Assembly (NCBI RefSeq): GCF_963921235.1
Contig: NC_086097.1
Location: 160,086,001 to 160,150,000 of the forward strand
DNA from: Mobula hypostoma
Lineage: Eukaryota
Length of the DNA: 64,000 nt
Reading direction: 5' to 3'
Shown here: piece by piece, positions 6,009 through 61,756 of the stretch
Layout: every line of letters starts with the position of its first letter
Position numbering within the stretch: the stretch's first letter is position 1
Position numbers and translations under genes: made by a program
Notes under the pieces: model-generated
The model's input: the letters and a program-made list of their open reading frames with translations, nothing else
Told to the model about the DNA's origin: nothing
Databases searched by the model: none

Positions 6009-6192
6009 GCAACACATACAAAATGCTGGAGGAACTCAGCAGGCCAGGCACCAACTAAGAAAAGAGTACAGTTGACGCTTCAGGCTGAACCCCTTCAGCA
6101 GGACTCTTTCCAAGATGCTGCCTGGCCTGCCGAGTTTCTCCAGCATTTTATGTGTGTTACCCAGATTTCCAGCATCTGCAGACCTTCTCCTG
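6009..6192. mobile_element. Palindromic PLE-derived mini-element with 14-bp TSD
   Basis: aacacatacaaaatgctggaggaactcagcaggccaggca is inverted with tgcctggcctgccgagtttctccagcattttatgtgtgtt; TSD gttgtat(c/a)atgtat at 5995-6008 and 6193-6206. Confidence 0.85.
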
Positions 6193-7105: not shown

Positions 7106-7913
7106 ATCCAGTAGTTTGTATTTCACTCCAGATTACTGCATTTGCAGTCTCTTGAGTTTCAATTAATTAATCCCCACCTATCCTATGCCATTTCTGTTGA
7201 GTAGAGAATGAAAAAGCTAAGTGGAATAATTTAGCTGAGCTCAAATGACAGAGACATCAAAATGAAATACAACTATTCATTTTGGTGTGATTGAACTAAT
7301 ATTTGCAATATGAAGAATTATCAATAATTTACAAAAATGTGATTAAAAATGTTAATTACAATGATGGGAATATGATAGCTAAAGTGCACATAATAATTGT
7401 GTTGTGACTGGAATCAATAATTCAGGGCACTATGATTGAAGAAGCATGATTAAAACAAAACAAAGATTCACTCGTAAAGTTACTTTAGGATGAAGTAGTA
7501 AATTTGATTCAAAATTGGCTTAGCAGGAAAAGTCAGAGTGGTGGTAGATAGTTGCCTCTTTGACTGGAGATCTTTGACTAGAGGTGTGCTGCAGGGATCA
7601 GTGCTGGGTCCATTGTTTCTTTATAATCTCTACTATATTAATAATAGTTGTTTGATAATGTGGTGCCCTGAATCAGCAAATCTGCAGATGATACAAAAAT
7701 TGGAGGTGTAGTTGATAGCAAGGAAGACTATCAAAGCCTACAGCAGGACGAAGGGTCGCGGCCTGAAACGTCGACTGTACCTCTTCCTAGAGATGCTGCC
7801 TGGCCTGCTGTGTTCACCAGCAACTTTGATGTGGGTTACTTGAATTTCCAGCATCTGCAGAATTCCTGTTGTTTGCGTTTTTAAAATTCACTACTGCGAA
7901 GCCTCTTCCGGTG

Positions 7914-8980
7914 ATGCCTACACTGAAGAAGTTTAAATCTTCTCTTCGACGGAGTTCAGTGAAACCATCTTTCACTGCTCCCCATCTGTAATTTCTTCGG
8001 CTCTTCAACTTTTCAACCACATTTTGACTCAGACTCGCTATCACAGCCATATATCCTTTCTTGGAACGTGCCTCCATCGCCAACTTACTCCAGTTGGCTT
8101 TAGGATTCGTTTCCGAGCCTCTCAATTTGGACCTTCTGAGGATCCCAGGTACTCACATTTTATTGACTCTGCCTCTCGTCGCTTCTCCCGTCAAGCTCTG
8201 AAGGCGACCCTCTCCGCCATGAGGAGTTGTTTGGTGTCCCTATCCCAGACCCTTGCACACCTTCGGGACACTTTCTTCACCGTCTGTAATGGTCCTACCC
8301 GTTATTTCATCCTCTGTCGGATTCACACCTGCAATCGCCGTTTTTTTGACTTTGTCATGTTAGGCAAAGATCGCAAGATTCTATATCTACGGACTCCAGA
8401 GCCCGCTGGCCATGAAACTAGCAGGCATGAACTTCAGATTGCGGCCCCTGCCATTGATCTCGCCGGCTCCAACACCTCAGGGCATATTCAAAATCCGGAC
8501 TCCAGCAACGACCATGGGCACCTTCAAAGCGATTGCGCAACCACCAACTGCGACTCCAGCCTTGAACTCCAGGCCGTGTCTTTATGTGCTGCTATTGTGA
8601 CTCCCGTCTCCCCTTCCCCCACCAATACTCTGCAATCCCGTCTCCTTCAGATCCCATCGTCAGCTCCTGGGTCCTCAGAGGCTCCATCTTCCTCTCACCC
8701 CAACCCTCCCCTCTCCATTGACACCCCCAGCCTCCCCCCTCTGATTCCAGCTCATCCGTGCCGGGTCTTTACCATCCCCTCAGACCTTCAACTGTCGGAG
8801 GCAGAACGCTCTGTCCGCAATAAGGGCCTCACCTTTGTCCCCCTTCGCCCACACCTCAGCGAGTTCTGTGTTCGCCACGATGCGGAACTCTTCTTCCGCC
8901 GTCTCCGTCTCCGAGCCTACTTCTTCGGCAAGGACTCTTCCACCCCCACCAATGACCCCTTCTCTCATCTTCAACCCTCC
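7914..8980 (+). pseudogene. N-terminal part of a PLE ORF, frameshift near 7952, truncated before the RT domain
   Basis: ATG at 7914 (MPTLKKFKSSLRR); one added base joins it to the frame of the 8024 ORF; the homologous copy near 47490 reads cgacgggagttt, which supports a 1-bp deletion here. Confidence 0.75.
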
Positions 8981-9017
8981 AGTCCTGACGAACGGTCTCG
9001 GCTTGAAACGTCGACTG
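8980..9017 (+). ncRNA. Minimal type I hammerhead ribozyme motif (stem II partly mutated)
   Basis: cagtc-CTGACGA-acggtctcggctt-GAAA-cgTC-gactg; stem I cagtc/gactg is perfect. Confidence 0.7.
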
Positions 9018-10716
9018 TACCTATTCCTAGAGATGCTGCCTGGCCTGCTGCATTCACCAGCAACTTTGATGTGTGTAGCAGGACCTGGACCTGCTGGAAC
9101 AATGGGCCAATAAATGGGAGATGGAATTTAATGCAGACAAGTGTGAGGTGTTGCACTTCAGAAGGACAAAACAGGGTAGGCTATACAAAGTGAAGGGTAG
9201 GACGCTGAGGAGTACAGTGGAACAAAGGGATCTAGGAATGTAGATCCATAATTCCTTGAAACTGGTGTCACAGGTAGATAGGATCATAAAAAGACCTTTA
9301 GGCACATTGCCTTCGTAAATCACAGCACTGAGAGAAGGAGATAGGATGTTATATTGGGGTTGTATAAAACATTGATGAAGCCAAATTTTGAGTGATGTGT
9401 GCAGTTTTGGTCACCCTCCTACAGGAAAGGTATCAGTAAGATTCAAAGAGTATCAAGAAAATATATAAGGATGTTGCCACGACTTGAGGATCTGTGTGAG
9501 AGGGAAAGAATAAACAGGTCAGGATTTTATTACTTGGTTGAAGGAGAATGAGGGAAGGTTTGACAGAGGTAAACAAAATTATGAGGGGTGTAGATAAGTC
9601 AGATTTTTACCCTAGGGTTTGGGGAGACCAGAAAGGGGTCATAGGTTAAAGGTGAAAGGTGAAATATTTAAGAGCTCCTGAAAAAAACTTCTTCACTCAA
9701 GATAGTGTGAATGTGAAATAAGCTGCCAGTGGAAGTAGTGGATGCAGGATTGATTGCAATATTTAATAGAAGTTTAGGAAAGCACATGGATGGGAGGGAT
9801 ATGTAGATCTATGAGCCAGGTGCAGGTGAATGGAACTGGGCAGAATAAGAGTTTGGCATAGGCTAGATGGGCCAAAAGGCCGGTTTCTGTGCAGTAGTGC
9901 TCGAGGACGATGACTATTGTTTCAGACAAACTTAGAGTCAGGGCAAATCACTTACCAAGCTGTGCTGGTCTCTATTTGATACGGGTAAAATTCTCATGGG
10001 ACTTGACAAGATAGATATAGAGTTGATGTTTGCTGAGCTGGGATGTTTAGAACCAGCAATAGTCTCAGAATGAAGACTCAGCTACTCAAGAATTAGAGGA
10101 TTGTGAACCTTTGAAATTTTCTGCCTCAAAAGACTGCAGCGGCTGTTACTATTTCAAAACAGATCACTAGATTTTTATATATTAATGAAATGAAAATAAA
10201 TGGAAATTTAGAAATTGAGGTTTGCTGAGGCTTGAAACCAATCATGATCTTATTAATGGAATGGACACGGGGGACCAAATGTCATTCACCTGCTTCTATT
10301 TCTTGATTCTTTACTTTAATAAAGTGAGGATACAGGTGATACTCCTGTGTAGAGTGAAGAAGCTGCAGATATGGGGAGTTTAAATACTCAAAGACACAAA
10401 CAAGTTGTCTTGAAGTATGTGTATAAAAAAAATTATCCAAATTATGCAAAGGAAGAAAATAGAAGCCAAGTTAATTTTATTTAGAATGGAATTCAATTTG
10501 TTATCACTGATTCATGACATTAAATCAATTGTTTTACAGCAGCAAAGTGTAAACTTAAAATTAATATAAATTACAAAAATAAATAAATATTGGCAAAAAT
10601 GGAATAATGAGATTGTGTCCATGGGTTTATGGACCAGAGAGATCAATGTTTCTATCATTAATTGAATTGAAATTGAGAGACTAATACTCTGTTACATTTG
10701 CAATATAATCACCTGT

Positions 10717-26653: not shown

Positions 26654-27037
26654 ATGTTTATTCTTTAAAACCGCAGTGTAATTATATATGGTGTGATATG
26701 TCAGAGTGGCACATGACACATAAGCTTTATCTTGGTACGTATGACCATAATGGATGGGAGAGTTATAGAGTGCTATGCTGTAGGTGTGGTTTGATGGACT
26801 AGGCAGAACAACCATTCTGCACAGACTAGATAGGCCAAAGGGCTTGTTTCTGTGCTAATGTGCTCTATGACCCTACCATAAACCGACTTCCGGTAGCGCT
26901 CATGGAGTGAAGTCGCGTTCTTGACTCGCTCCATTACCTCTGAGTTTTTTTTCTCTATGGTCAGCTATACTTTAATTAACCATTAAGGCATCAACTCTTA
27001 CAATACTTTGAATTAAACTGAATTCTCTGACAACTGG

Positions 27038-27937
27038 ATGGAACTTAGATCTGCTATGTCTAAGAACGGGAAAAACGGCAAGGATGGTAAACCTTCGGTT
27101 AAACTGAAAGGTATGGATCTCCCTCCGACTGAATCACCGGTGACTTTGAAAGCGATATCGGAGTTAATTCAGAGGGAAATTTCAACCTCTGTTAGGGAGA
27201 TGATTCGTACGGAAATTGCAGACTCTGTTAAAGACCTGATTCATACGGAAATCTCAATTAATCTCCAGAAAATTGCCGATTCAATTGATAAGATGCAAAC
27301 ATTTATTGCGGAACATCAGTCGGCTATATCTGATCTTCAAAAATTCGCGCAACAAAGTGAGCTTAAGATGGGGAAAATCGAAGAAACAATTAATGTAATG
27401 AAGAAGAAACGTGACTTTCTGACTTTTAAAAACTCAGACTTGGAATCTAGAATGCGACGGCAGAATTTACGAATGATTGGGGTGCGTGAAGCTGTGGAAT
27501 CTAACAACCCCATGAAGTATTTTTCTCAACTTTTAAAAGATGCATTCCCTACTGTATTTCCTGACCAACCACCGCTACTGGATCGTGTTCACAGAATCCC
27601 ATCATACTCGTCTAGGTCAGATAGACCTAGGCATGTTATCTTACGTTTTCATTACTTTCAAGACAAGGAGAGACTGTTTCGATTCGCTCGATCTAAAGGT
27701 TTCATTGATTTTTCGGATCTTAGGTTCCGATTCGTGGAAGATTTCAGTAAACCAATCTGGGACCAACGGGTTCGCTACAGATCTGTGATGTCGGAATTCT
27801 ATAAGATGGATTTAAGACCAGCGTTGCTGTACCCTGCAGGTCTAAGGATTCGCATGTCAGATGGAGTCCTTCGTTTTTTTGATTCTCCATCGGATGCCCA
27901 GAGTTATCTGGATCAACTTTCACCTTCAACATCTTAA
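27038..27937 (+). CDS. L1 ORF1p (coiled coil, RRM, CTD), 299 aa, intact
   Basis: DLESRMRRQNLRMIGV, LDRVHRIP, PRHVILRFHYFQDKE, FVEDFS and LLYPA motifs of L1 ORF1 (Transposase_22-type). Confidence 0.93.
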   Translation: MELRSAMSKNGKNGKDGKPSVKLKGMDLPPTESPVTLKAISELIQREISTSVREMIRTEIADSVKDLIHTEISINLQKIADSIDKMQTFIAEHQSAISDLQKFAQQSELKMGKIEETINVMKKKRDFLTFKNSDLESRMRRQNLRMIGVREAVESNNPMKYFSQLLKDAFPTVFPDQPPLLDRVHRIPSYSSRSDRPRHVILRFHYFQDKERLFRFARSKGFIDFSDLRFRFVEDFSKPIWDQRVRYRSVMSEFYKMDLRPALLYPAGLRIRMSDGVLRFFDSPSDAQSYLDQLSPSTS

Positions 27938-28654
27938 TTGCTATTTTTTTTAATTATCTCCGTTGATCAGAGGCTGTGAATTGGTTGGTTTTAACTTTTT
28001 CGTGCCCTATTTGGGCAGAAAAGTTTATTTTTGATTTCTTAATATGGTTGCTAAACTTTCTTTTCAACTGCGTCATTTCTTTCTTTTCCCAGGGGATTCT
28101 GGGTGGTTACTTCCTTTTTGTCATCTTACGTATTTCCTGTGTGGCCTTAAATTTTGTAGTTTTTTTAAATTTTATTCTGTTTTGCTTTTTATAACCACTT
28201 TATGTCAATAATCTTATTTTTTCTTGTTGTTGTGTTTATTCATGGGTTTGGGGTTTATTGTGGTTTTTTTTAATATATATTTTCTGGCTTTTGTTCTGTT
28301 GTGTGTGTATTTTAATTGAGTTACCTTTTTTTTATTTTTTTACTGTTTTACAATTAGCTGATCTTTTTCATATTTATACCTTTTTTTTAGGGAGCGTATA
28401 CCGGAAGTCATGGGGGTAGTTTTAGCGCTTGCTTCTTTCGGGCGGGTCTGCTTTAGATTTTGCCTTGGGGTCTTGGGGTGGGGGGTGGTGGGAGGGGCTT
28501 CACGTTTTAGTTTTTTTCTCTTTGGGCTATATACATTATTGAAGTACTGGTTGCGTCCTTTTTCCCGGTATCTTTCGTATGTTCTGTTTCCTCTCCGGGT
28601 TCGTGGGTCGAGCCTATCGTCAATCCTCCTTGTTGTGGGTTGACTTTAGGATTT

Positions 28655-31600
28655 ATGGAGTCTATTATTAATTTTGTCTCCTGGAATACTAACGGTCTTA
28701 ATCATCCTATTAAAAGGAAAAAAGTTTTTAAAGTGTTCCGGAGACTTAAAGCACAAATTTTATTTTTACAAGAGACCCATGTACGGAGGGGGGACAGACT
28801 ACGTTTTTTTAAATTCTGGAAGGAACAACAATTTCATTCGAACTCCAATGCTAAGATTCGAGGCGTCTCTATTTTTATAGATTCCTCAGTTACTTTTATA
28901 CAACAGGATATTATTTCTGATCCGAATGGTAGATTTTTATTGGTTAGTGGTTTACTATTTAATAAAAAAGTAGTTTTGGTTAATGTTTATGCTCCTAATA
29001 TGGATTGTCCGGAATTTTATAAATCATTGTTTAATCAGTTTCCGAATTTGAACGAGTTTTCATTGATCTGGGGCGGAGATCTTAATACCTGTTTGTCTCC
29101 AGCTTTGGACCGTTCGGCTCCTTTACGGACCTTACCTAATAAATCTGCAAATTTGATTAATTTTTTCCTTTCTGATTCTGGGGCGACGGACATTTGGCGT
29201 TTTCTGCATCCTCAGGAAAAAGATTTTTCCTTCTTTTCACATGTTCATCATTCCTATTCAAGAATTGATTATTTTTTTATTGATTCTCGTCTTATTCCTT
29301 CAGTGATTAAATGTGATTATGATTCTATAACCATTTCGGATCATGCTCCACTTAAGCTTTCTATTAAAATTATGGCCAATATACCAAATAATAGACAATG
29401 GCGTTTTAATTCGCTGTTGCTTCAGGACTCAGACTTTGTTAACTTTATGAATGAACAGATTGAGCTTTTTTTTACAATTAACCATACAGAGGATATTTCG
29501 GTTAACACTCTTTGGGACACTTTTAAAGCCTATATTCGGGGTCAGATTATTTCGTATTCTGCTGCTTTGAGGAAGAAACAGAAGCAGGAGGAGATGGCAA
29601 TTGTGGACAAGATTAAAGAAATTGATAAGAAATATGTTATGGCTCCTTCTGAGGAGTTATACAAACAAAGAACTGAACTTCAAATGGAACACAGTTTACT
29701 ACTCTCGTCCTCGATTGTAAAGCAATTAAAGAAAACAAGAAGTGACTTTTATGTTCACAGTGACAAAATTGGCAAGCTGCTGGCTAATCAATTGAAATCT
29801 AATTATGTTAAATCTCAAATCAATCAGATTTATAACCAAAATGATCGATTGATACTGGATCATGTGGGGATTAATCAAACCTTTTGTGATTTTTATTCTT
29901 CTTTATATCAATCAGAGTCTCCTCGAGATTCTAAATATATGAATGATTTTTTAGATAAGTTAGACTTCCCTCAGATTTCACAGGATATGTCTTCTTTATT
30001 AGATACTTCCATTACAATGGATGAGATTAAGAATGTTATTTTTTCTATGAATCTGGGGAAAGCTCCTGGCCCGGATGGGTTTACCGTTGAATTTTATAAA
30101 TGTTTTGCTTCTTTATTGATCCCTTGGCTCTGTAGGGTTTTTGAGGCTTCTTTGAAACTTGGTAAACTTCCTGAATCTTTTAATAGAGCATCAATTTCTC
30201 TAATACTAAAGAAGGATAAAGACCCTGCTCAATGTGCATCTTATAGACCAATATCTTTATTAAATGTTGATTCTAAAGTTTTTTCTAAGTTATTAGCAAA
30301 TAGACTAGAAAAAGTACTTCCTTCTATTATTTCGGAAGACCAAACGGGTTTTATTAAAGGTCGTTACTCTTTTTATAATATTCGTACATTGTTAAATATC
30401 GTTTATACTCCCTCACAAAATGTTCCTGAGTGTGTTATTTCTTTAGATGCCGAGAAAGCTTTTGATAGAGTAGAATGGCCTTATTTATTTAAGGTGCTTG
30501 AAATGTTTAATTTTAGCTTGAAATTTATATCCTGGATTAAACTGTTATATCATTCCCCTGTAGCCTCGGTTCGTACTAACTCTTTAAACTCACCTTTTTT
30601 TCCTCTCTTTCGAGGTACTCGACAAGGCTGTCCTCTTAGTCCCCTATTATTTGATATTGCATTAGAACCTCTTGCAATTGCTATTCGAGAATCTTCAAAT
30701 ATTACTGGGATAACTCGGGGATTAAAGTCCCATAAATTATCACTCTATGCTGATGATTTACTTTTATATATCTCTAATCCTGAGAAATCCATTCCTGCTG
30801 TTTTAGAGTTATTAGCACAATTTGGTTTTTTTTCAGGTTATAAATTAAATCTTAGTAAGAGTGAACTTTTTCCGATTAATAAACATCTTCCCTTATATTA
30901 TAAATTTCCATTTAAATTGATTAATAATTATTTTTCATATCTTGGGATTAAAATTACTTGTAAATACAAAGATTTATTTAAGACTAACTTTTTACCATTA
31001 ATAGACCATATTACTCAACTTTCATCTAAATGGTTTCCCTTATATTTAACTTTGATTGGTCGTATTAATGCAGTTAAGATGTTTTTTTTGCCAAAATTTT
31101 TATATGTGTTTCAGGCATTACCAATTTTCGTTCCAAAATCTTTCTTTGATAAAGTTGATTCTAAAATTTCTTCATTTATTTGGCAGAATAAGAATCCGAG
31201 ACTGGGTAAAATACATTTACAGAAAGCTAAGAGAGATGGAGGTTTAGCATTACCTAACTTTAGATTCTATTATTGGGCTATTAATATTCGACATATGAAA
31301 TTTTGGTTACTTGATCAGGACATACTATCTATTCCTAAATGGGTAGCATTGGAACTACAATCTGTTCAGGGTTATACACTTGGCTCTATTTTAGGCTCCT
31401 CTCTCCCTTTTGATTCGAAACGCCTTAAGCAGGTCTCTAACCCGATAGTTAAATATGCTTTGCGCATTTGGTTTCAATTCAGAAAATTTTTTGATCTTAA
31501 TCAATTCGGGTTAGCGATTCCTATTTTAGGTAACATATTTTTTCCTCCCTCTTTTACGGATCGCGCTTTTCAAACTTGGAAGACTAAGGGTATTTTACGG

Positions 31601-32430
31601 TTTTTGGATTTATTTTTAGATGGTTCCCTTATGTCTTTTGAACAATTATCTAATAAATATAACTTATCAAGAATACATTTTTTTAGATATTTACAAGTTA
31701 GAAATTTCCTAAGTACTATACTTTCTTCCTTTCCAATGCTTCCTCCTACATATATTTTAGATTCGATAATTAACCTCAATCCATGTCAGAAAGGTGCATC
31801 GGCTATGATTTATAATATTATTATGAAACTTAGGAAAGCTCCATTTGATAAGATTAGGGTAGATTGGGAACAGGAGTTGGGGCTTACCATTTCTGTGATG
31901 ATTGGGGGCAGATTTTACAATTAGTTAATACTTCCTCTATTTGTGCTAAACATTCCCTAATTCAATTTAAAGTGGTTCATAGAGCACATATGTCCAAAGA
32001 TAAGTTAGTGCGTTTTTACTCGCATATTAATCCTTTCTGTGATAGATGTTCGGGGCAGAGAGCCTCTTTAACTCATATGTTTTGGTCTTGCCCTACTTTG
32101 GAAACTTTTTGGAGAGATATTTTTAATATTATTTCTAAGGTATTAAATATAGATATCTCTCCTCACCCTATTACTGCTATCTTTGGACTACCTAAAATTT
32201 CTAGTAATCTTTCCCCTTCAGCCTGTAGAATGATTGCATTTCTTACTTTAATGGTGAAAAGATGTATTTTACAACATTGGAAAGAGCTTAATGCTACAAC
32301 TACCTTTTTTTGGTTTTCTCAGACGATTTTATGTTTGAATTTGGAGAAAATTAGAAGTAACCTTTATGATTCTTCATTTAAATTTGAACAGATTTGGGGA
32401 CCTTTTATTCGATATTTTCATTTAATGTAA
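28655..32430 (+). CDS. L1 ORF2p (APE endonuclease, RT, Cys-rich C-terminus) with one frameshift near 31895
   Basis: SWNTNGL, LQETH, GGDLN, SRIDY, SDH (EN); KAPGPDG, YRPISLLN, SLDAEKAFDRV, RQGCPLSP, LYADD (RT); CDRC...HMFWSC continues in the 31864-32430 frame. Confidence 0.95.
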
Positions 32431-34127: not shown

Positions 34128-34328
34128 AAACACGCAGAATATGCCAAAGGAATTCTGCAAATCAGGCATCGTCTATAGTGAGGAATAAACTGTCAACGTT
34201 TCAGGCTGAGACCCTCCCGACTCATCAACTGTTACTCCTCTCTATACATGATGTTCAACTTGCTGAGTTCCTCCAGCATTTTATGTCGACTGCTCAATAT
34301 TTCCAGAAGCTGCAAAATCACTTGCTTT
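34128..34328. mobile_element. Decayed palindromic PLE-derived mini-element
   Basis: Same two-arm layout as 6009-6192; hammerhead remnant gtcaacgtttcaggctgagaccct. Confidence 0.65.
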
Positions 34329-37515: not shown

Positions 37516-39119
37516 ATGATTTAAGAAAAATGGAGGATTGTGGGCTGTGTAGAAGGAATGAGTTAGATTGATTGTGAAGTACTGAAATGTAGATCAGCAC
37601 AACATCATGGGACAAAGGGACCATGCCATACGTAGAGCATACTGTCTATGATCTAATCTCAGAGTATTTCCCTTCTGCTCTCCTTATAGAACCCTGGTTT
37701 GATAATAGTAGCAAAGAGAGGCATGCGCCAAGCCATTGGATTACAGAAATTCATGGATGCTTAGTTCCGAGAGGCTAGAACAGTTCTATAGCAATTACTG
37801 TAAAGAAAATCTAAACCAAGAGTTGGACATTTTGCCAGCACTAACAAGAAAGTAGGTGGAACCAATTTATAATTGATAGTTGAAGGTTTAGTTATGCTGA
37901 AGGAAAAATACTCACTGTATGAAAACATAGTGAAAATTGAAACCCTCTATCTGCTTAGATATACCTGGATGGCACTTAGTAATACTATAACTTAATATAC
38001 CAAAAACTGAAAAGTGAAATTAATTTCTTTCACTTTGCTATAAATATGATGGACTAGAATCATTCTTCAACGCTGAAGATTCCTGTGGTTCTATCAAATT
38101 GGTCACTTAACAGCATTGAAAACAAGCTATCAAGGTTTGTGATAACGTATTATCAAGGTGGACTTTCAAAGAATCTTTCATTCCTCCAATATTTATTGGA
38201 GTTATTTAAGAAAGTCCAAATCAAAGAATGAAAAGCACTTAAATTTCAGCAGTCATCTCATGAAATTGCCACACATGGGACTGTTAATAAACATCAAAAC
38301 TAATTAGCCAGCTGTTAAAATATTGTAATAATAGGACAGAAAACATGTTGATGGATAGAGACCGATCTAGCCGATGACAATGATTGATAGACTCTGTTCC
38401 ACATGTCCCATTTCATGCACTATTTATTAATGATAAGGAATTTCATTGTTATTTGGTAACATATATAAGTAATGCTAGTTCATTCAGCCATTTGACCAGA
38501 ATAAAGAATGTTAACTTTAGTCAAAAGCCTTTAAGTCAGTAGAAAGTAGATTCCAAGGAGAGTAAGAGCATGAACTAAACAGCTATTCTTCGGTCATGTT
38601 GAAATTTGGAGTGATTAATTACTATTGAGTAGAACTAATCAATGTGAAGTCATTAACAGAGCTACTCTCCCATTGGAATACATGGAAAGAATATTTCAAA
38701 AGTAACTTTCCGAGTTACTGCAACTTCATGTTTTAATTATTCATTGAAATGTTGGAGATATCACTGTCAAAGCCACCATTTATTATTGATTGCTAATCTC
38801 CTCTGACCAGGCGACCCAGTAGTTCCATTTGACTTTCACAGTATTTATTTATTTATATTTAGAGATACAGCACAGAACAGGCCTTTCACCAAATGAGCCA
38901 GACCACCCAGCAAACCAGCTATTTGTTATACAAATAGAATATACAAACTTCTTATAGAGGATGCCAGAATTGAACTCCGAACTCTGACCCCCCCCGCCCC
39001 CCAAGCTATAATAATGTTGCACTGACCACTATGCTACCGAGGAAACATGAAGTAAGAAGCTGGAAAGATCCATTCTTTTTCAGCCTGTCTTTTTTGTTGA
39101 GGATGAGGAGCAGTTCATT

Positions 39120-40520
39120 TTCAAAGCCTTCCCTCAGTAATGCACCCCAACTCTTCTTGTGTTACATTGATGACTGCATTGGTGCTGCTTCATGCACCCA
39201 TGCTGAGCTTGTCAGCTTCATCAACTTTCCCTCCAACTTCCACCCTGCTCTTAAATTCACTTGGTCCATTTCTGACACCCTCCTCCCCTTTCTTGATCTC
39301 TCTGGAGACAAACTGGAGACCGACATCTTTTATAAACCTATTGATTCCTATGGCTATGTTAATTATACCTCTTTGCACCCTGTCTCCTGTAAAAATGCTA
39401 TTTCAGCTTTTTCATCTCCGCTGCATCTGTTCCCAGGATGTGGCTTGTCTTTACAGAATATCAGAAATGTCTTCCTTTTCAAAGAACGGGGTTTCCTTTC
39501 CTCCACCATTGATGCTGCCCTCATACACATCTCCTCCATTTCCCAAACATCCACGCTCACTCCATATTCCCACAACCTTATCAGTAATACGGATTCTCAT
39601 GTCCTTACCTACCACCCCATTAGCTCTGCATCTAACACACCCTCTGCAACTTCTGGCATCTTCAAAAAGATCCTAATACCAAACACATCTTTACCTCCCC
39701 ACCTCTATCCACATTCCAAAGGAATCATTCCCTCCATGATTCCCTTGTCCATTCGTCTCTCCCCTCTAATCTCCCTCTCGGCACATCCCTGCAAGCGACC
39801 AAAGTGCTACACCTGCCCATACACCTCCATTCAGGGCTCAAACAGTGCTTCCAACTGAGGCAACACTTCTGCTGCAATCTTCTGGGGTTGTCTATTGTAT
39901 CTAGTGTTCCTGTTGCAGCCTTCTCTATATTGGTGCAACCGGTCGCAAACTGGGGGACCACTTTATTGAGCACCTTTACTCCATCTGCCAGAAGCGGAAA
40001 TTCCTGATGGCCAAACATTTAAATTCCGATTCCCATTCCCATTCGGACATGTGAATCTATGACCTCCTTCTGTGCGATGATGAAGCCACCCTCAGGGTGG
40101 AGGAGCAACACTTTACCCTCTGTCAGGATAGCCTCCAATCTGATGGATTTCTCCTTCGAGTAAATATGTTTTTTCCTCTTCTTCTATTCCTCACTCTAAT
40201 ATCTTACCTCTTCTCACTTGCCTGTCACCTCCCTCTAGTGCTCCTTCTCCTTCCCTTTCTCCTATGATCCACTCTCCTCTCATATCAGATTCCTTCCTCT
40301 CCAGCCTTTACCTTTCTGACTAACTTGGTTTCACCTATCACCTTCTAGCTATCCTCCTTCCCCTCCCACCGATTTTTCATTCATGTCCAGAAGAACGGTC
40401 CATTCCAGTCATCAAGAAGAGTCTCAGCCTAAGATATTGATTGTATGGACTGTTTATTCACCTCCATGGACGCTGCCTGATCTGCTGCATTCCTCCACCA
40501 TTTTGTGTGTGTTGTTTTTG
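39120..40520 (+). mobile_element. Decayed 5'-truncated PLE: RT C-terminal half, GIY-YIG endonuclease, 3' repeat
   Basis: LFLCYIDDCIG (YIDD), NFHPALKFTW, LPFLDL, DIFYKP and CKRPKCYTC; homologous to 44651-45911. Confidence 0.9.
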
Positions 40521-43500
40521 AGTTCAATACACTTTCCCACTTAGCTCTTTAACATACTGCATTCATTCATTTCTGTTTGAAGAATAGTCGATCCTGGCCT
40601 ACCATCATCTTTAGGTAAGAAACATTTCTACTGAAGCTAAGTATTTTCAGTCATCTTTTTCTAAAGGTTAACTTTGAATAATATGCCGAGGATAATGGAA
40701 ATAATATTCCTTTGAGTGATTATTTTACCTCCAGGAATTAACGTGTGCCTCTCTTGCCAAATGATTTTCTTGTCTTATCTGATGAGTACAATAGAGTCAT
40801 TTCTTCATATTGTTATAACAGAGTTGATCTCCATCTGTTCTACATTTTCCCACTGGTGTCCTTGATCTGTTAGTGAAGACAATGTTAGCAGACCCTAGAG
40901 CATTCCACAATTCTGAAGACAAAGTTTTGTAATTTCTTTCTTGGAGAAGGAGGGTGGAATCCGAATACTGCTGGCAAAGCTAGCATCTCTGTTCTGCATC
41001 ATTTATTTCCCTGGACATTGGGGTGGTGAGCTTCCTTCATGAACTGCTGCAGTCATTCTGCATAGAGGTTCCAGGATCTAGTCAAATGATGGCAATATAC
41101 TTCCAAAGCAGGATGGTGTACGACTTGGAGAGGACTTCTGTAGTGTTTATGCTGACTGCACCCCACAGAAGCTCAGCTGTAACCTGCCACACGAAGGATG
41201 GATTTCTCCCCCTCTGTGATTCAGCTCACTGGAAAATAGTGGACGATCTTAGTATACCATTTTACTAAGGATACATTATTTTATTGGAGATAGGCCTGCT
41301 CAATTTGGCTCTCACTGTAGGCTGTCAGGATACCTCCAAAGGTAGAGTTTTGCTAAAATGCCAGGGATAATGAGCACAGCAACTTCGCATTAATCATTTT
41401 ATCCACCACAGTGATCTTTTACTTTCAAAGTAAATGTTAAAGATAAGGTAGTTGGATTTTGATGCTTCATTGCCCACTCGAAGGTAACTTGAATATGCAA
41501 TAACGCATCAAAATCTGACCACTTTCAATTTAAATATTAAACAGACCTTGTATAATTGATGAAGAAGTAAATAAATAAGTGACACAATTAATTTAATTCA
41601 ATATTTGCTGAAGAAATCCTTCAATCTAGCTGCTTACAAGGAAAACATCAGAAGGTCACAATCTATTCCTTTGTCAACAACTTTTCAATAAATGGTGTCT
41701 GTATTATTTCAATTCTTATCAATGAGAGAGTTACTCTGTCCAAAATATATAACATTCCAGATTGAAAACAGCCATATCATTGTAACTATCACTGCCCAAT
41801 AATTGTTGTGGTCATTCTGATGTGGATAACTTATCACATTGAAAAATTGGCCATTGTATACAGCATGTAACTTTATTAAAATATTTTTTGTTTGTTCAGT
41901 AATTGGTTACCTTAGGAATTAATGAAATCCATTACACTTGTATTTAGAGAGAACTTTTGACTTTTGACTGAGTTTCTAATGAACCAGGTATCTTGTCCCA
42001 TGAGAAAGAAAAACAGGGCTTTAAGATTTCGCAGAATTTTGAACGAGTACTTCTTTGTATTGAGTTAGGAAAAAAACTTTTGATTCTTAACTGGATCTCT
42101 AATGAGTTAAACACAAAACTTCCCTTTGAAGAATGAAAGCTGAGGGTAACCTCATTGGGGAATTTTAAATTAATCACAGTTTTGGATTGAGTGAATACTG
42201 AGAGGATATTTTACATTGCAGGGCAGCATCATTAGAGATGAACAAATTGAGATAGTTACCAAGAAATCATATGCAGAATGCAAAATACCCATTAACCCGA
42301 AGAGTAGCAAGAACATCAACTTACTACCAAGGGGAGCAACTGAAGCAAAGAGTGTAGATGCATTTAATGGGAGGGGTTGGTTGAACAGTAAATAAAAGAA
42401 AAAGGAATAGATGGTTAAAGTTATAGATTTGGATGAGGAAAGAAAAGAAGCTTGACTCATCACAAACACATGTGGATAGATCGAGCCTAAGTCTATAGGT
42501 TTGCATCTTAACTGATCATTCGAACTGTAAACCATCGCTTTGTGATATTAATATATTTTTTATCTCTCCATTACCACAATATGATCTGCTGGTCATATCC
42601 TACGGTTATGCACTTTACCACAACCTATACTCCCATGAAATTATTATTACTCTCTAACAGTCACTATCCACCAGTATTTTGCCCTATATCAACTCAATCC
42701 AATCCTGCCTTCTCCATATCACAGATATGCCCCTTGTCCTATTTATCTCTGCCCATCTTCCCTACAACTTAAAACTAATTTGGTTTTCCATCATTCCAGG
42801 TTTTGATGAAGGGCCTCTGACCAGGAACATGAATTTTGTTTCTCTGTACGTTGATACTACCTGACCTGCTGAGTGCATCCAATATTTTCTGCTTCATCTG
42901 CTGCTTTCATACTTGTGATCTGCACATTCCTTTTCTGTGTTACACATCCAATGTAAACTGATGGAATTTTTATGTATAGCTCCTGCACCTACGGCAGACA
43001 TGATCTTTGATCTCTTGTGCTAGGTGATACACATGCAGTTGCAGTCAACCTCCATATATGCAAAATCTCAAAAGATACAACAGTATAGAAATGAGTACAA
43101 CCAGATGACCAACACTTGAACAAGAAACCAGAGATAAACTTCTCCCCCATTGAAATAAACGTACCTTTCTATAACAACTATGGAATCACAGAAATATATG
43201 GTTAAGGAGCAAGTCATTCTTCATATTGTACATATGTAAACTCTTTAAAATGAATTATATTTTTCATGCTGTAACACTCTTCTTTTCAATTACTTAATTG
43301 AAGCAGAATCTTTCTCCCTCACAATTTCCATAGGCAATTGTCCTTGTTAAATCACCATACTACAAAATAAAAATAACACTCCAATTATTTAGAGCAGCAG
43401 AACCTTGACAGCAAACTGCAGGATATTCAAGCCTCTGTGTATGATGACTTATGTTTATTTTTGCCTGAGGAAGTAAGGAAGAGCAAGAAACACATAGATT

Positions 43501-43606
43501 TATAGACACAAACACGAGGAATTCTGCAGATGCTGGAAATTCAAGCAACACACATCAAAGTTGCTGGTGAATGCAACAGGCCAGGTAGCATCTCTAGGAA
43601 GAGGTA

Positions 43607-43644
43607 CAGTCAACGTTTCGGGCCGAGACCCTTCGTCAGGACTA
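43607..43644 (-). ncRNA. Minimal type I hammerhead ribozyme motif (intact core)
   Basis: Minus strand agtc-CTGACGA-a-gggt(ctcg)gccc-GAAA-cgTT-gact. Confidence 0.8.
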
Positions 43645-43940
43645 ACTGAAGGAGGAACTAGTAAGAGATTTGAAAGTGGGAGGGGGACGGGGAGATCCAA
43701 AATGATAGGAGAAGACAGGAGGTGTAGGGATGGAGCCAAGAGCTGGAGAGGTGATTGGCAAAAGGAGTATGAGAGGATCATGGGACAGAAGGCCCAGGGA
43801 GAAGGAAAAGGGAGTGGGGGGGAATCCAGAGGATGGGCAAGGGGTATAGTCAGAGGGACAGAGGGAGAAAAAGGAGAGAGAGAGAAAGAATGTGTATTTA
43901 TAAATAAATAACGGATGGGGTACGAGGGGGAGGTGGGGCC

Positions 43941-44267
43941 TTAGCGGAAGTTAGAGAAGTCAATGTTCATGCCATCAGGTTGGAGGCTACCCAGACGGAA
44001 TATAAGGTGTTGTTCCTCCAACCTGAGTGTGGCTTCTTCTTTACAGTAGAGGAGGCCGTGGATAGACATATCAGAATGGGAATGGGATGTGGAATTGAAA
44101 TGTGTGGCCACTGGGAGATCCTGCTTTCTCTGGTGGACAGAGCATAGGTGTTCAGCAAAACCATCTCCCAGTCTGCGTCGGGTCTCGCCAATATATAGAA
44201 AGCCACATCGGGAGCACCAGACGCAGTATATCACCCCAGCCGACTCACAGGTGAAGTTTTGCCTCAC
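43941..44267 (-). pseudogene. PLE GIY-YIG endonuclease domain (left arm)
   Basis: GVIYCVWCSRCGFLYIGETRRRLGDGFAEH...EEQHLIFRLGSLQPDGMN. Confidence 0.9.
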
Positions 44268-44659
44268 CTGGAAGGACTGTCTGGGGCTCTGAATGGTGGT
44301 AAGGGAGGAAGTGTAAGGGCATGTGTAGTACTTGTTCCACTTACAAGGATAAGTGCCAGGAGGGAGATCAGTGGGGAGGGATGGGGGGGACTAATGGACA
44401 AGGGAGTTGCGTAGGGAGCGATCCCTGCGGAATGCAGTGGGGGGGGGGAGGGAAAGATGTGTTTAGTGCTGAGATCCTGTTGGAGGTGGCGGAAGTTACG
44501 GAGAATAATATGTTGGACCCGAAGGCTGGTGGGGTGGTAGGTGAGGACCAGGGGAACCCTATTCCTAGTGGGGTGGCGGGAGGATGGAGTGAGAGCAGAT
44601 ATGCGTGAAATGGGGGAGATGCGGTTGAGAGCAGAATTGATGGTGGAAGCTATCTGGGT

Positions 44660-45512
44660 TATTCCTCTTCTCACCCTGTCTCTTGCAAAAACGCCATCCC
44701 CTTCTCGCAATTCCTCCGTCTCCGCCGCATCTGCTCTCAGGATGAGGCTTTTCATTCCAGGACAAGGGAGATGTCCTCCTTTTTTAAAGAAAGGGGCTTC
44801 CCTTCCTCCACTATCAACTCTGCTCTCAAACGCATCTCCCCCATTTCACGCGCATCTGCTCTCACTCCATCCTCCCGCCACCCCACTAGGAATAGGGTTC
44901 CCCTGGTCCTCACCTACCACCCCACCAGCCTCCGGGTCCAACATATTATTCTCCGTAACTTCCGCCACCTCCAACAGGATCCCGCCACTCAGCACATCCT
45001 TCCCTCCCCCCCCCCCGCATTCTGCAGGGATCGCTCCCTACGCAACTCCCTTGTCCATTCGTCCCCCCCCATCCCTCCCCACTGATCTCCCTCCTGGCAC
45101 TTATCCTTGTAAGTGGAACAAGTGCTACACATGCCCTTACACTTCCTCCCTTACCACCATTCAGGGCCCCAGACAGTCCTTCCAGGTGAGGCAACACTTC
45201 ACCTGTGAGTCGGCTGGGGTGATATACTGCGTCCGGTGCTCCCAATGTGGTCTTCTATATATTGGCGAGACCCGACGCAGACTGGGAGATCATTTTGCTG
45301 AACACCTACGTTCTGTCTGCCAGAGAAAGCAGGATCTCCCAGTGACCACACATTTTAATTCCACATCCCATTCCCATTCTGACATGTCTATCCACGGCCT
45401 CCTCTACTGTAAAGATGAAGCCACACTCAGGTTGGAGGAACAACAACTTATATTCCGTCTGGGTAGCCTCCAACTTGATGGCATGAACATTGACTTCTCT
45501 AACTTCCGCTAA
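44660..45512 (+). pseudogene. PLE RT thumb/linker plus GIY-YIG endonuclease (right arm, frameshifted)
   Basis: FFKERGFP, RVPLVLTYHP, Cys-rich linker CKWNKCYTC (Neptune-like) and VIYCVRCSQCGLLYIGETRRRL. Confidence 0.9.
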
Positions 45513-45813
45513 TGCCCCACCTTCCCCTCGTACCCCATCCATTATTTATTTATATATACACATTCTTTCTCTCTCTCTCCTTTTTCTCCCTCTGTCCCTC
45601 TGACTATACCCCTTGCCCATCCTCTGGGTTTTTCCCCCGCCTCTCCCTTTTCCTTCTCCCTGGGCCTCCTGTCCCATGATCCTCTCATACTCCTTTTGCC
45701 AATCACCTGTCTAGCTCTCGGCTCCATCCCTCCCCCTCCTGTCTTCTCCTATCATTTTGGATCTCCTCCTCCCCCTCCCACTTTCAAATCTCTTACTAAC
45801 TCTTCCTTCAGTT

Positions 45814-45850
45814 AGTCCTGACGAAGGGTCTCGGCCCGAAACGTCAACTG
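45814..45850 (+). ncRNA. Minimal type I hammerhead ribozyme motif (one stem I mismatch)
   Basis: agtc-CTGACGA-a-gggt(ctcg)gccc-GAAA-cgTC-aact. Confidence 0.75.
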
Positions 45851-47301
45851 TACCTCTTCCTAGAGATGCTGCCTGGCCTGCTGCGTTCACCAGCAACTTT
45901 GATGTCTGTTGCATAGATTTATAGAGTGTTCTTTCCCATATTATGCAGGATATTCCATAATACAAGTTTGAACTAAATGAAGTAGCTTGAAGTATAGTTT
46001 CCACTCTTCATTAGCTTTCCCTGTGGGTCTCTTACATCACCCTTTCATGTTCTTATCAGTTCTATTATTCTGTAAAAAGTGAGTGAATGTGATTCAATGA
46101 GACTGTGGTGCAGATCTCCAGAAGCAAGTTGAAGAACATTTATTAATGTGTGGCAATGCTTTTTTTCACCCAAAAGCTTTGAAATCGTGGGGTTAGGTGA
46201 CAGACATCATGAAACAAACACTTCCAGCATGTAACATTACTATCTATTAGTGGCAACTAGTCTTTGCTACAGTTATCATGGAAAATGCATGAGCTATTTA
46301 TGCAATGATGAAAAACCTCTTTTCACTTTGTGTTTCTCGTAAGAAGCTTGTCACTGTATATATATTTTGCTCTCCCATGTGAAAGCAACAATGTGATACA
46401 GGGAACAAGGCATTGTCTCGATGGCATTAGCTTACACCTCAGTATCCAAATATAGATAATGCAAATGAATTATGGCTAGTAGGGTGTTTTTCACTGATTT
46501 ACCAGGTGGGTGCTTGACTAGATAATCCCTACAGACATCTGCCAGGGAAAGAAAACAGCTGGCATATTGTCTTTGCTCTGTTTCAGCTGCAGTTAAATGT
46601 AACCTGGGCTCATAGAACAGAATTAATCTTTCTCTGAATGCTAACTTGCAGAATTAAGAAGTGAAATATGTATGATCTAAAGGCATGGCAGATAATAGGT
46701 TTATATTGTGACTGTTCAGTAATGATTAGTTGTCACTGTGTTAACAGAGGAGAGCTATATAGTTTGATGGTGAAGGAAAAGGGAAAATACTTTCTCAAGT
46801 GGGTGATCAAGAACAAACTAAAAATTAAAGCTAATTGATTCAGTGATGCCAAGAACTGCACTCAAATTACATTGAAAATCTGTTATTTTCTCATTTGCTA
46901 GGGCAATTAAAATTTTCAAACCAATAAAAAGATCTAACAAAAATATATTAAACATTACAAAAGAGTTACAACACAGATAGCCAATTGAACAATGAATAGG
47001 AAACAGATCCAGGCATGAGCATTAGTTTTCTGTCAGCATTAAGAAAATATATTAGGCAGTGAATTATTCTAAGTTCATCACTTGGAGCATTTGAACTCTG
47101 ACGCTTAAAATTTTATTGGCATTTGCCAAGACAAGTTAAAGACTAACAGTGTGGGGAACCTTTTGGCATTTTATCTGAGGACACACTGTAAGAAATAGAG
47201 CAGTGCAGCTTCTAATGAATGAACTCCTAAACTGGGGTGGGTGGAGCGCAGTGGGATTTGCAATAAGAAAGTTGAGCGAAATCCAAGGATAGAGGAAGGT
47301 T

Positions 47302-47741
47302 CACAAACAAGAGAAAATCTGCAGATGCTGGAGATCCAAAGCAACACAAACAAAATGCTGGAGGAACTCAGCAAGCCAGGCAGTATCTATGGAAAGAAGT
47401 ACAGGTGACGTTTCGGGCCGAGACCCTTCGGCAAGACTGGAGAGCAGCGAGCTCACAAAGGGGGAGCAGTGAGAGAGGGTTTCACTAAACTCCCGTCGAA
47501 GGGAAGTTTTAAACTACGTCAGGGTAAGCATCCTTGGAAGAGACTTCGCAGTGTAATAATCAAATCACAAACAAGGAAAATCTGCAAATGCTAGAAATCC
47601 AAGCAACCCACACAAAATGCTAGAAGAACTCAGCAGCATCTATGGAAAGAGGTACAAAGAGTACTGCCGAAGGGTCTCGTACTGTACTTTTTATAGATGC
47701 TGCCTGGCCTGCTGAGTTCCTCCAGTATTTTGTGAATGTTG
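47302..47741 (-). mobile_element. Mini-PLE (repeat, ORF start, repeat on minus) plus a short inverted arm
   Basis: 47445-47560 (reverse complement) is homologous to 7885-8005 (ATG at 47531, ..SLRREFSETLSHCSP); terminal repeats on both sides; inverted arm at about 47661-47741. Confidence 0.8.
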
Positions 47742-60899: not shown

Positions 60900-61088
60900 G
60901 CAAACAACAGGAATTCTGCAGATGCTGGAAATTCAAGCAACACACATCAAAGTTGCTGGTGAACGCAGCAGGCCAGGCAGCATCTCTAGGAAGAGGTGCA
61001 GTCGACGTTTTGGGCCGAGACCCTTCGTCAGGACTAACTGAAGGAAGAGTGAGTAAGGGATTTGAAAGCTGGAGGGGGAGGGGGAGAT
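60900..61088 (-). mobile_element. Solo PLE 3' terminus with 11-bp TSD; hammerhead GAAA mutated to AAAA
   Basis: Near-identical to 43507-43700; TSD gcaaattaagt at 60889-60899 and 61089-61099. Confidence 0.9.
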
Positions 61089-61756
61089 GCAAATTAAGTC
61101 ATCAATCTAAAATGCAGCACTGAGTTTAGTTCTGTTAACTATTTTCTGAACTAGAATAACAAAGTATGGAATTCTCAGAGCCCCTTAACCCTGGCCTAGA
61201 CATTGAATATATTTTTAGACTAACTGATGTATTTCTATTTAATGGGATCTGTTTTGGGGCAATGGATGAACTCAGGGCACTGAAAATTTGTCTAAAACAA
61301 TTTACATTTAACACAACAGAGCAAATCCCTGTTTGCAGGACTATCACTCAAGCCATCTCACAGAAAGAAGTGGAGCTACTTGAACTGGGTGTATCTTGCT
61401 GAGTGAATGTTTGTGTCTCTTCTAATTTAGCTTTAAGGATATAAAAAAAATCAGAAAGTCCTTGCAAACTGTAGCCCCTCAACTTCTGGCTCCACTCCAG
61501 TTGCAGAGCTATGATCTTGAACCACCTTGCATGGGCAGGGATAAAATGATTATTTCCCTGGTAAAGCAACTTCTTCTGGATATCCCTCAATGCAAATGTA
61601 ATAAACAGGACAAGGCAAACATAATCTTTATAACTATGAGCAGAGGATCAATTTTAAGTAAAGGTATAAAAGAAAGCAATAATGTTACTACAGGAAAGGA
61701 TGGCACTTTAGTTAAAATGTCATATTAATGTCATATACAACAGCCTTTTCAATATT

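Follow-up and report, generated by a model that had tools for sequence, protein, structure and literature searches.

The motif that recurs in the window, the whole 64,000-nucleotide stretch of Mobula hypostoma DNA that was analysed (positions 160,086,001-160,150,000 of its contig), is by its sequence a minimal type I hammerhead of an already known kind, and its host is likely, judging from the frames that it encodes, a high-copy EN+ Penelope-like element (PLE) of the Neptune clade. The explanation that we consider probable is a slow hammerhead, working as a dimer or with protein help, in a Neptune-like pLTR, with the RNA that is copied into insertions continuous across the cut. Cleavage itself is predicted, and new insertions are likely shaped by some step other than cutting. 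The region 43607-45850, which had been singled out for the motif, was composed of parts of one dead insertion (43507-45911), in which two copies stand back to back at 44647/44648, and the hammerhead copies of the window are passengers.

The copy at 43607-43643(-) had a stem I of four Watson-Crick pairs and one G-U pair, which was followed by CUGACGA and an unpaired A; its stem II was composed of three G-C pairs and one U-G pair with a 4-nt loop and led into GAAA-CG-UU, with the predicted cut between 43612 and 43611. The core C3 U4 G5 A6 N7 G8 A9 ... G12 A13 A14 A15.1 ... U16.1 H17 was found in the copies 43643(-), 45814(+), and 8981(+), and was departed from in the C6 lineage and at 61011. A helix I of 4-5 bp together with a helix II of at least 3-4 bp was found in 43643(-) and in the family majority, and an unpaired A between positions 9 and 10.1, followed by G10.1, was present in the motif. 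The palindrome ACGT (A15.1-C-G-U16.1), which the sequence-only reading had described as stem III, was present and formed no stable helix III, and the position given by that reading for the predicted cut was correct. The same reading had described stem I as agtc/gact and stem II as a 4-bp stem at all three copies. The first description did not hold at 45814(+), where the strands were agtc/aact and the first stem I pair, the one adjoining the predicted cut (45845/45846), was C-A; the second did not hold at 8981(+), where the first stem II pair was C-T. A natural GAAA>AAAA change had been noticed near 61011, and G12 was indeed A at 61011 in the copy 61035(-).

Table 1. Hammerhead copies, element copies, and target site duplications in the window
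Feature	Positions	Strand	Remarks
Older-lineage remnant	6069-6105	-	30/37; C at core position 6; in short fold-back 6011-6158
Remnant	7741-7777	+	29/37 to query
Same-family copy, internally deleted	7747-9080	+	upstream pLTR begins inside hammerhead (-26 from cut)
Hammerhead	8981-9017	+	33/37; core intact, stem II broken (C10.1-U11.1)
Older remnant, decayed, 5'-truncated	34148-34226	-	CUGA half missing
TSD, left copy, 14 bp	43493-43506	.	identical 14-mer at 45912-45925
Left arm, 5'-truncated PLE copy	43507-44647	-	GIY-YIG end, 3' UTR, hammerhead, tail
Hammerhead	43607-43643	-	35/37 to query; only intact copy in window
Right arm, 5'-truncated PLE copy	44648-45911	+	frame ending 45512: CX4CxxC linker, GIY-YIG/CCHH endonuclease
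Hammerhead	45814-45850	+	core intact; G1.1>A (CpG decay); fails strict descriptor
TSD, right copy	45912-45925	.	matches 43493-43506
Older-lineage remnant	47402-47438	-	34/37; C at core position 6, also C3>U
Young-family hammerhead	60999-61035	-	35/37; G12>A at 61011

An ungapped scan of the window with the copy 45814-45850 as query scored 29-35 of 37 positions at six sites, against a best score of 24/37 in 50 shuffles, and the motif was thereby recovered where it had been reported. The remnant at 34190-34226(-) scored 23/37, which is within the shuffle range, and its family membership was taken from the 3' flank (51 bits). A strict minimal-hammerhead descriptor, run on 864 kb (the window and 80 10-kb stretches), found 18 sites, every one of them in the PLE family of 43607-45850, whereas each of 10 dinucleotide shuffles gave 0-2. 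A single one of these sites, 43639(-), was in the window. An Rfam scan of the window at E<=5 gave no hammerhead match and three chance matches only. A loose CTGANGA..GAAA pattern was dropped as unspecific (16 matches against a shuffle mean of 7.6).

The left arm of the insertion was 93.9% identical to 44807-45920 inverted, with its 5' end at -1035 from the cut and its 3' end 105 nt past the cut. The 3' end of the right arm was 66 nt past the cut, and the tail was one-sided, being ~39 nt longer in the left arm. The GIY-YIG match of the right-arm frame (E 0.011) was below the Pfam cut-off. The hammerheads at 43607(-) and 45850(+) lie on opposite strands and therefore give no tandem dimer in one transcript. 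A cis dimer between 43607 and 45850 was ruled out on this ground, and the idea that the two main copies form a dimer pair had to be given up, since they belong to oppositely oriented arms of a single insertion. Full-length relatives, unlike the window arms, have same-strand motif pairs able to form a cis dimer.

In the copy at 7747-9080(+), the sequence passed from the 5' part of the ORF straight to the 3' hammerhead, at its front edge. Internally deleted copies with 5' ORF sequence joined to the 3' pLTR were seen in the window (8980/8981) and at the sampled loci L101, L110, and L117, and the deletion junction was at or just inside the hammerhead front edge in three of the four cases (window, L101, and L117). 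Junctions at the front edge suggest template switching from a stop there. The hammerhead at 60999-61035(-) sits in a short 3' fragment starting at 61093. Short fold-backs of two inverted pLTR ends, turning in or near the hammerhead, were observed at 6011-6158, at 47301-47741, and at many sampled loci. The window also contained an older PLE copy at 38974-40497(+), ~70% identical to the young family, with an RT remnant and a decayed hammerhead at 40407, and an L1-type LINE at 27017-32430(+), which looks young and was composed of ORF1 (Transposase_22), a 1137-codon APE-RT frame, and a zf-RVT frame past a break.

The exact 35-place pattern of the intact motif matched the 3.48-Gb genome 44,581 times, against 0 matches for the reversed control; these dispersed copies and the TSD ruled out chance or an assembly artefact as the source of the motif. 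A profile search found 275 relatives in 1.464 Mb sampled, or ~650,000 genome-wide by simple scaling. Copies at least 85% identical made up 3.24% of the sampled 1.464 Mb, and all relatives made up 5.46%. Among 20 long relatives, chosen by similarity to window positions 7890-8970, same-strand hammerheads flanked a 3.5-kb unit on both sides in 14, and an inverted upstream copy was present in 7. One relative (L113) had a natural 1043-codon open frame with RT (RVT_1, E 3.9e-6) and GIY-YIG (E 0.0011), CCHH, and a CX4CxxC linker; the RVT_1 and GIY-YIG scores were both under the Pfam curated cut-offs, with the motifs visible. The CX4CxxC linker was found in the translated frames P0001 and P0004. A CX2-5CxxC linker marks Neptune and Nematis and is absent in Penelope/Poseidon (PMC8557442). 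The first ATG was 138 nt 3' of the predicted cut. Pfam on 12 window ORFs gave no PLE domain at E<=0.01, and a PDB search with the element ORF returned nothing relevant. The frame with RT and GIY-YIG, CCHH, and the CX4CxxC linker therefore identifies an EN+ PLE, likely Neptune. Other traits of such elements were found too, namely partial tandems of the pLTR, inverted copies, an optional tail, a variable TSD, and, in L113, a single ORF with RT and, at its C-terminus, GIY-YIG with CCHH. The description of the motif as a minimal type I hammerhead of PLEs whose helix III is palindromic was borne out by the core, the ACGU, and the position in the pLTR of an RT and GIY-YIG unit.

One sampled locus, L280 (G000:C2:157,815,500-157,818,500), was a tandem array of 310-nt units. 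Each unit contained an intact hammerhead and the first ~140 nt of the ORF, with 0-1 differences among three units, and the units joined at the stem I front edge instead of the cut. This array is retrozyme-like as Li et al. 2026 (10.64898/2026.07.22.740005) define the term. Non-LTR retrozymes are defined by a non-coding tandem array, which was the form of L280, whereas the window copies were dispersed or inverted and joined to the ORF.

The 5' ends were taken from BLAST, and were uncertain by a few bases, in 87 copies including the ORF start (90 minus 3 duplicates; L280 excluded). Relative to the cut, 21 were downstream, one was within 5 nt (-3), none was at the cut, and 65 were upstream. The upstream ends were distributed as 23 at -6 to -54, 17 at -55 to -327, and 25 running to the reference end at -328, and the stops at -6 to -54 corresponded to the front edge of the motif. 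An unselected sample contained 63 of 66 copies, three at stretch edges being left out. None of these 63 ended exactly at the cut, two ended within 5 nt (-2 and +4), and stops at -23 to -55 were found in 14 of 49 copies at risk, compared with 3 of 35 over the following 45 nt. Of 51 copies, 49 had their 3' end between +47 and +113, 17 of them falling at +63 to +70 and 21 between +95 and +113. These cDNAs therefore all started on the 3' side of the predicted cut site and crossed it. Since nearly all sampled 3' ends were 47-113 nt 3' of the cut, the templates were uncut or re-ligated, and copy ends cannot separate uncut linear RNA from cut-and-ligated circles.

A model of the second kind has been proposed in PMC4209133. 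A tandem transcript would be cut at both hammerheads, the 3.5-kb unit would be ligated, and more-than-unit reverse transcription would rebuild the pLTR, so that cleavage would be essential and scarless. Copying of more than a unit length is compatible with the 25 of 87 copies that reached 328 nt or more upstream of the cut, in many cases into the ORF, and the pLTRs within an element were slightly more alike than those of different elements (mean 7.9 vs 10.3 mismatches, 11 elements, p=0.07). However, a unit circle has no end at the front edge, where the stops clustered (23 of 65 within 49 nt, compared with 17 of 42 over the following 273 nt, and 14 of 49 in the unselected sample); in addition, the junction of the 310-nt array L280 was at the front edge instead of the cut, and the C6 lineage spread. 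Because it would be scarless, the cut-and-ligate circle keeps a share of the probability, and we hold it to be unlikely.

In 110 young copies, decay tracked CpG, with 5-11% at CpG and 1-2.4% elsewhere. Changes at A/U were found at 0 of 684 core positions against 35 of 3294 flank positions in these copies, which are not independent, and G/C core positions showed no difference. Among genome-wide copies with a single change, the core A9 (252) was changed as often as the non-core A9.1 (264, p=0.63), whereas the core U4 (354) was changed less often than a loop U (487, p=5e-6), in the expected direction. Excess conservation of core bases across genomic copies, which the sequence-only reading had made its test, gave a mixed picture, with U4 leaning towards it and A9 not. 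Core conservation across genomic copies is a weak test, because copies decay after insertion (dead on arrival).

When copies were sorted by the 3' flank, 138 of 188 anchored copies fell into four lineages and 50 were unsorted. Across the four lineages, 32-36 of 37 positions of the block were kept, with 11-19 of 25 in the upstream flank and 13-17 of 20 in the downstream flank. The lineages differed in the block only at N7, loop II, 11.1 (G-C/G-U), H17, and position 6, and all 11 core positions were canonical in three of the four. In contigs from four sequencing runs of four organisms, the other lineages parted from the sequence precisely at 45814 and at 45851, which bound stem I on the outside. 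These patterns support selection that would act on the 37-nt block. No two-sided compensatory change in stems I and II was found among the four lineage majorities, and the lineages may be too close. With no two-sided covariation and with the 3' flank partly kept, selection on catalysis as such is not proven.

Position 6 was counted in the unselected sample, where 175 of the 275 profile matches were complete enough, 63 of them unsorted by lineage. In one older lineage, 9 of 12 copies had C6, compared with 0 of 54 young copies and 3 of 46 copies from another older lineage. When the flank of the older lineage was included in the pattern, the genome contained 1,370 C6 and 853 A6 matches; the otherwise exact motif was matched 187 times with C6, 107 times with U6, and 44,581 times with A6. 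Several C6 copies with the older flank carried ORF sequence upstream. An older lineage spread with a C6 core. In other hammerheads, the A6C change causes a strong slowdown in Mg2+ and a preference for Mn2+ (PMC7151607, PMC3088659). A literature search, with supplements and PMC5785218 outside its scope, found no report of a C6 PLE lineage. Position 11.1 was C in the three older lineages, and 73 of 100 young copies had G10.1-U11.1 where G-C is usual. CpG decay, which reached ~10% at other CpG sites, does not account for such a frequency, and U11.1 must therefore have been fixed in an active master.

When the motif was folded with ViennaRNA, the monomer gave a non-hammerhead hairpin at -11.9 kcal/mol, compared with -9.5 kcal/mol for the hammerhead, and the dimer gave an extended duplex at -32.1 kcal/mol, compared with -17.3 kcal/mol for the double hammerhead. 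The modelled folds give no support for a spontaneously active form. More stable competing folds would also be compatible with a motif that no longer cleaves in this lineage, the block being kept as a promoter or start-site element or as a protein-binding RNA structure with a ribozyme ancestor. The amplification of the C6 lineage, the absence of two-sided covariation, the G10.1-U11.1 pair in 73 of 100 young copies, and the clustering of stops at the block front edge, as a start site would give, agree with such a relic. It is nevertheless quite unlikely, with the 11 core positions canonical in three of four lineages, the conserved block ending exactly at the two stem I strands, changes confined to free positions (N7, loop II, and H17), and the hammerhead of a related element reported to cleave with protein help (PMC11167929). 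As for the strong form of the sequence-only reading, in which the copied RNA gets its 5' end from linear processing at GAAACGU(C/U), the canonical core and palindromic helix III are intact in the young family and same-strand pairs exist in full-length elements, but such processing left no trace in copy ends, with 0 of 87 and 0 of 63 5' ends exactly at the cut and no more than one and two, respectively, within 5 nt of it, and we consider it highly improbable.

The preferred reading is the slow hammerhead in a Neptune-like pLTR whose RNA is copied across the cut. Reverse transcription would start 65-110 nt 3' of the cut, at the tail, and would read through the uncut motif; copying would often run off at the motif front edge, where the RNA likely has its 5' end. 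Helix III may form by ACGU pairing between two motifs, either 3.5 kb from each other in one pLTR-ORF-pLTR transcript or on separate RNAs. If the RNA is cut at all, this would happen to a minor extent or at a later stage (release, circle formation, or turnover) and would not set the insertion ends. A bolder extension, which we offer tentatively and regard as rather doubtful, is that the hammerhead is not a processing step of retrotransposition. Transcription would start at the front edge, uncut RNA alone would be copied, and the hammerhead would act as a self-destruct or counting switch when two RNAs meet; the blunted C6 lineage still spread. If this is true, the spread of C6 to thousands of copies, possibly Mn2+-tuned, would be a natural in vivo test in which PLE cleavage was dispensable.

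The tens of thousands of near-identical copies form a very large natural data set that bears on the function of PLE hammerheads. They record templates crossing the cut, the start and stop points of copying, and the amplification of a lineage whose core is weakened. Natural variants for a cleavage assay are on hand (A6/C6, C11.1/U11.1, and G12A).

The motif class is already published (PMC4209133), where min-HHRs were described in metazoan PLE pLTRs, including Xena, Poseidon, and Neptune of fishes. As monomers, PLE minimal hammerheads were reported to show no activity, and as dimers a low one (Cervera and de la Pena 2014, PMC4209133). The present motif shares with these min-HHRs the pLTR location, the CUGANGA/GAAA core, the short helix I, the unpaired base between 9 and 10.1, G10.1 opening stem II, and the palindromic 15.2/16.2, and the PLEs of both works consist mostly of solo truncated copies with some close pairs on opposite strands. 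In contrast, 44,581 exact copies were found here against up to ~9,000 reported there, and U11.1 is present in most young copies here; in the passages of PMC4209133 that were compared, no C6 lineage is mentioned and the host lineage is not named.

The partial tandems, the inverted 5'-truncated arm, and the one-sided tail were like those of EN+ PLE insertions (Craig et al. 2021, PMC8557442), and the CCHH GIY-YIG and CX4CxxC linker were like those of Neptune/Nematis in the same work, with nothing different in kind. A C at core position 6 is shared with the A6C hammerhead of phage Bcep176 (PMC3088659, PMC7151607). The Bcep176 hammerhead is a single natural ribozyme, slow in Mg2+ and Mn2+-preferring, whereas the C6 core described here belongs to a lineage of retrotransposons, matched at least 1,370 times in the genome and known from sequence alone. 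Non-LTR retrozymes, which were described in one cartilaginous fish sampled (Li et al. 2026, 10.64898/2026.07.22.740005), likewise have a type I hammerhead of PLE origin, as the present motif does. Unlike them, the window copies are dispersed PLE ends and not tandem non-coding arrays, which only L280 resembles.

A parallel in mechanism was PAc, which is a Poseidon element from Anolis (Frangieh et al. 2024, PMC11167929). The hammerhead of this anole element needs the element protein in order to cleave, its mutants leave in vitro insertion unaffected, and reverse transcription starts at two internal sites bounding the tail (PMC11167929). Unlike PAc, the element described here has a Neptune-type linker and its first ATG is outside the motif, 138 nt 3' of the cut. 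As in PAc, the hammerhead is upstream of the tail, with uncut RNA as the insertion substrate, and two 3' end positions, known here from genomic copies, bound a tail of 30-40 nt with no ends at the cut. The copy-end pattern thus agrees with that of one in vitro study of an active PLE (PMC11167929).
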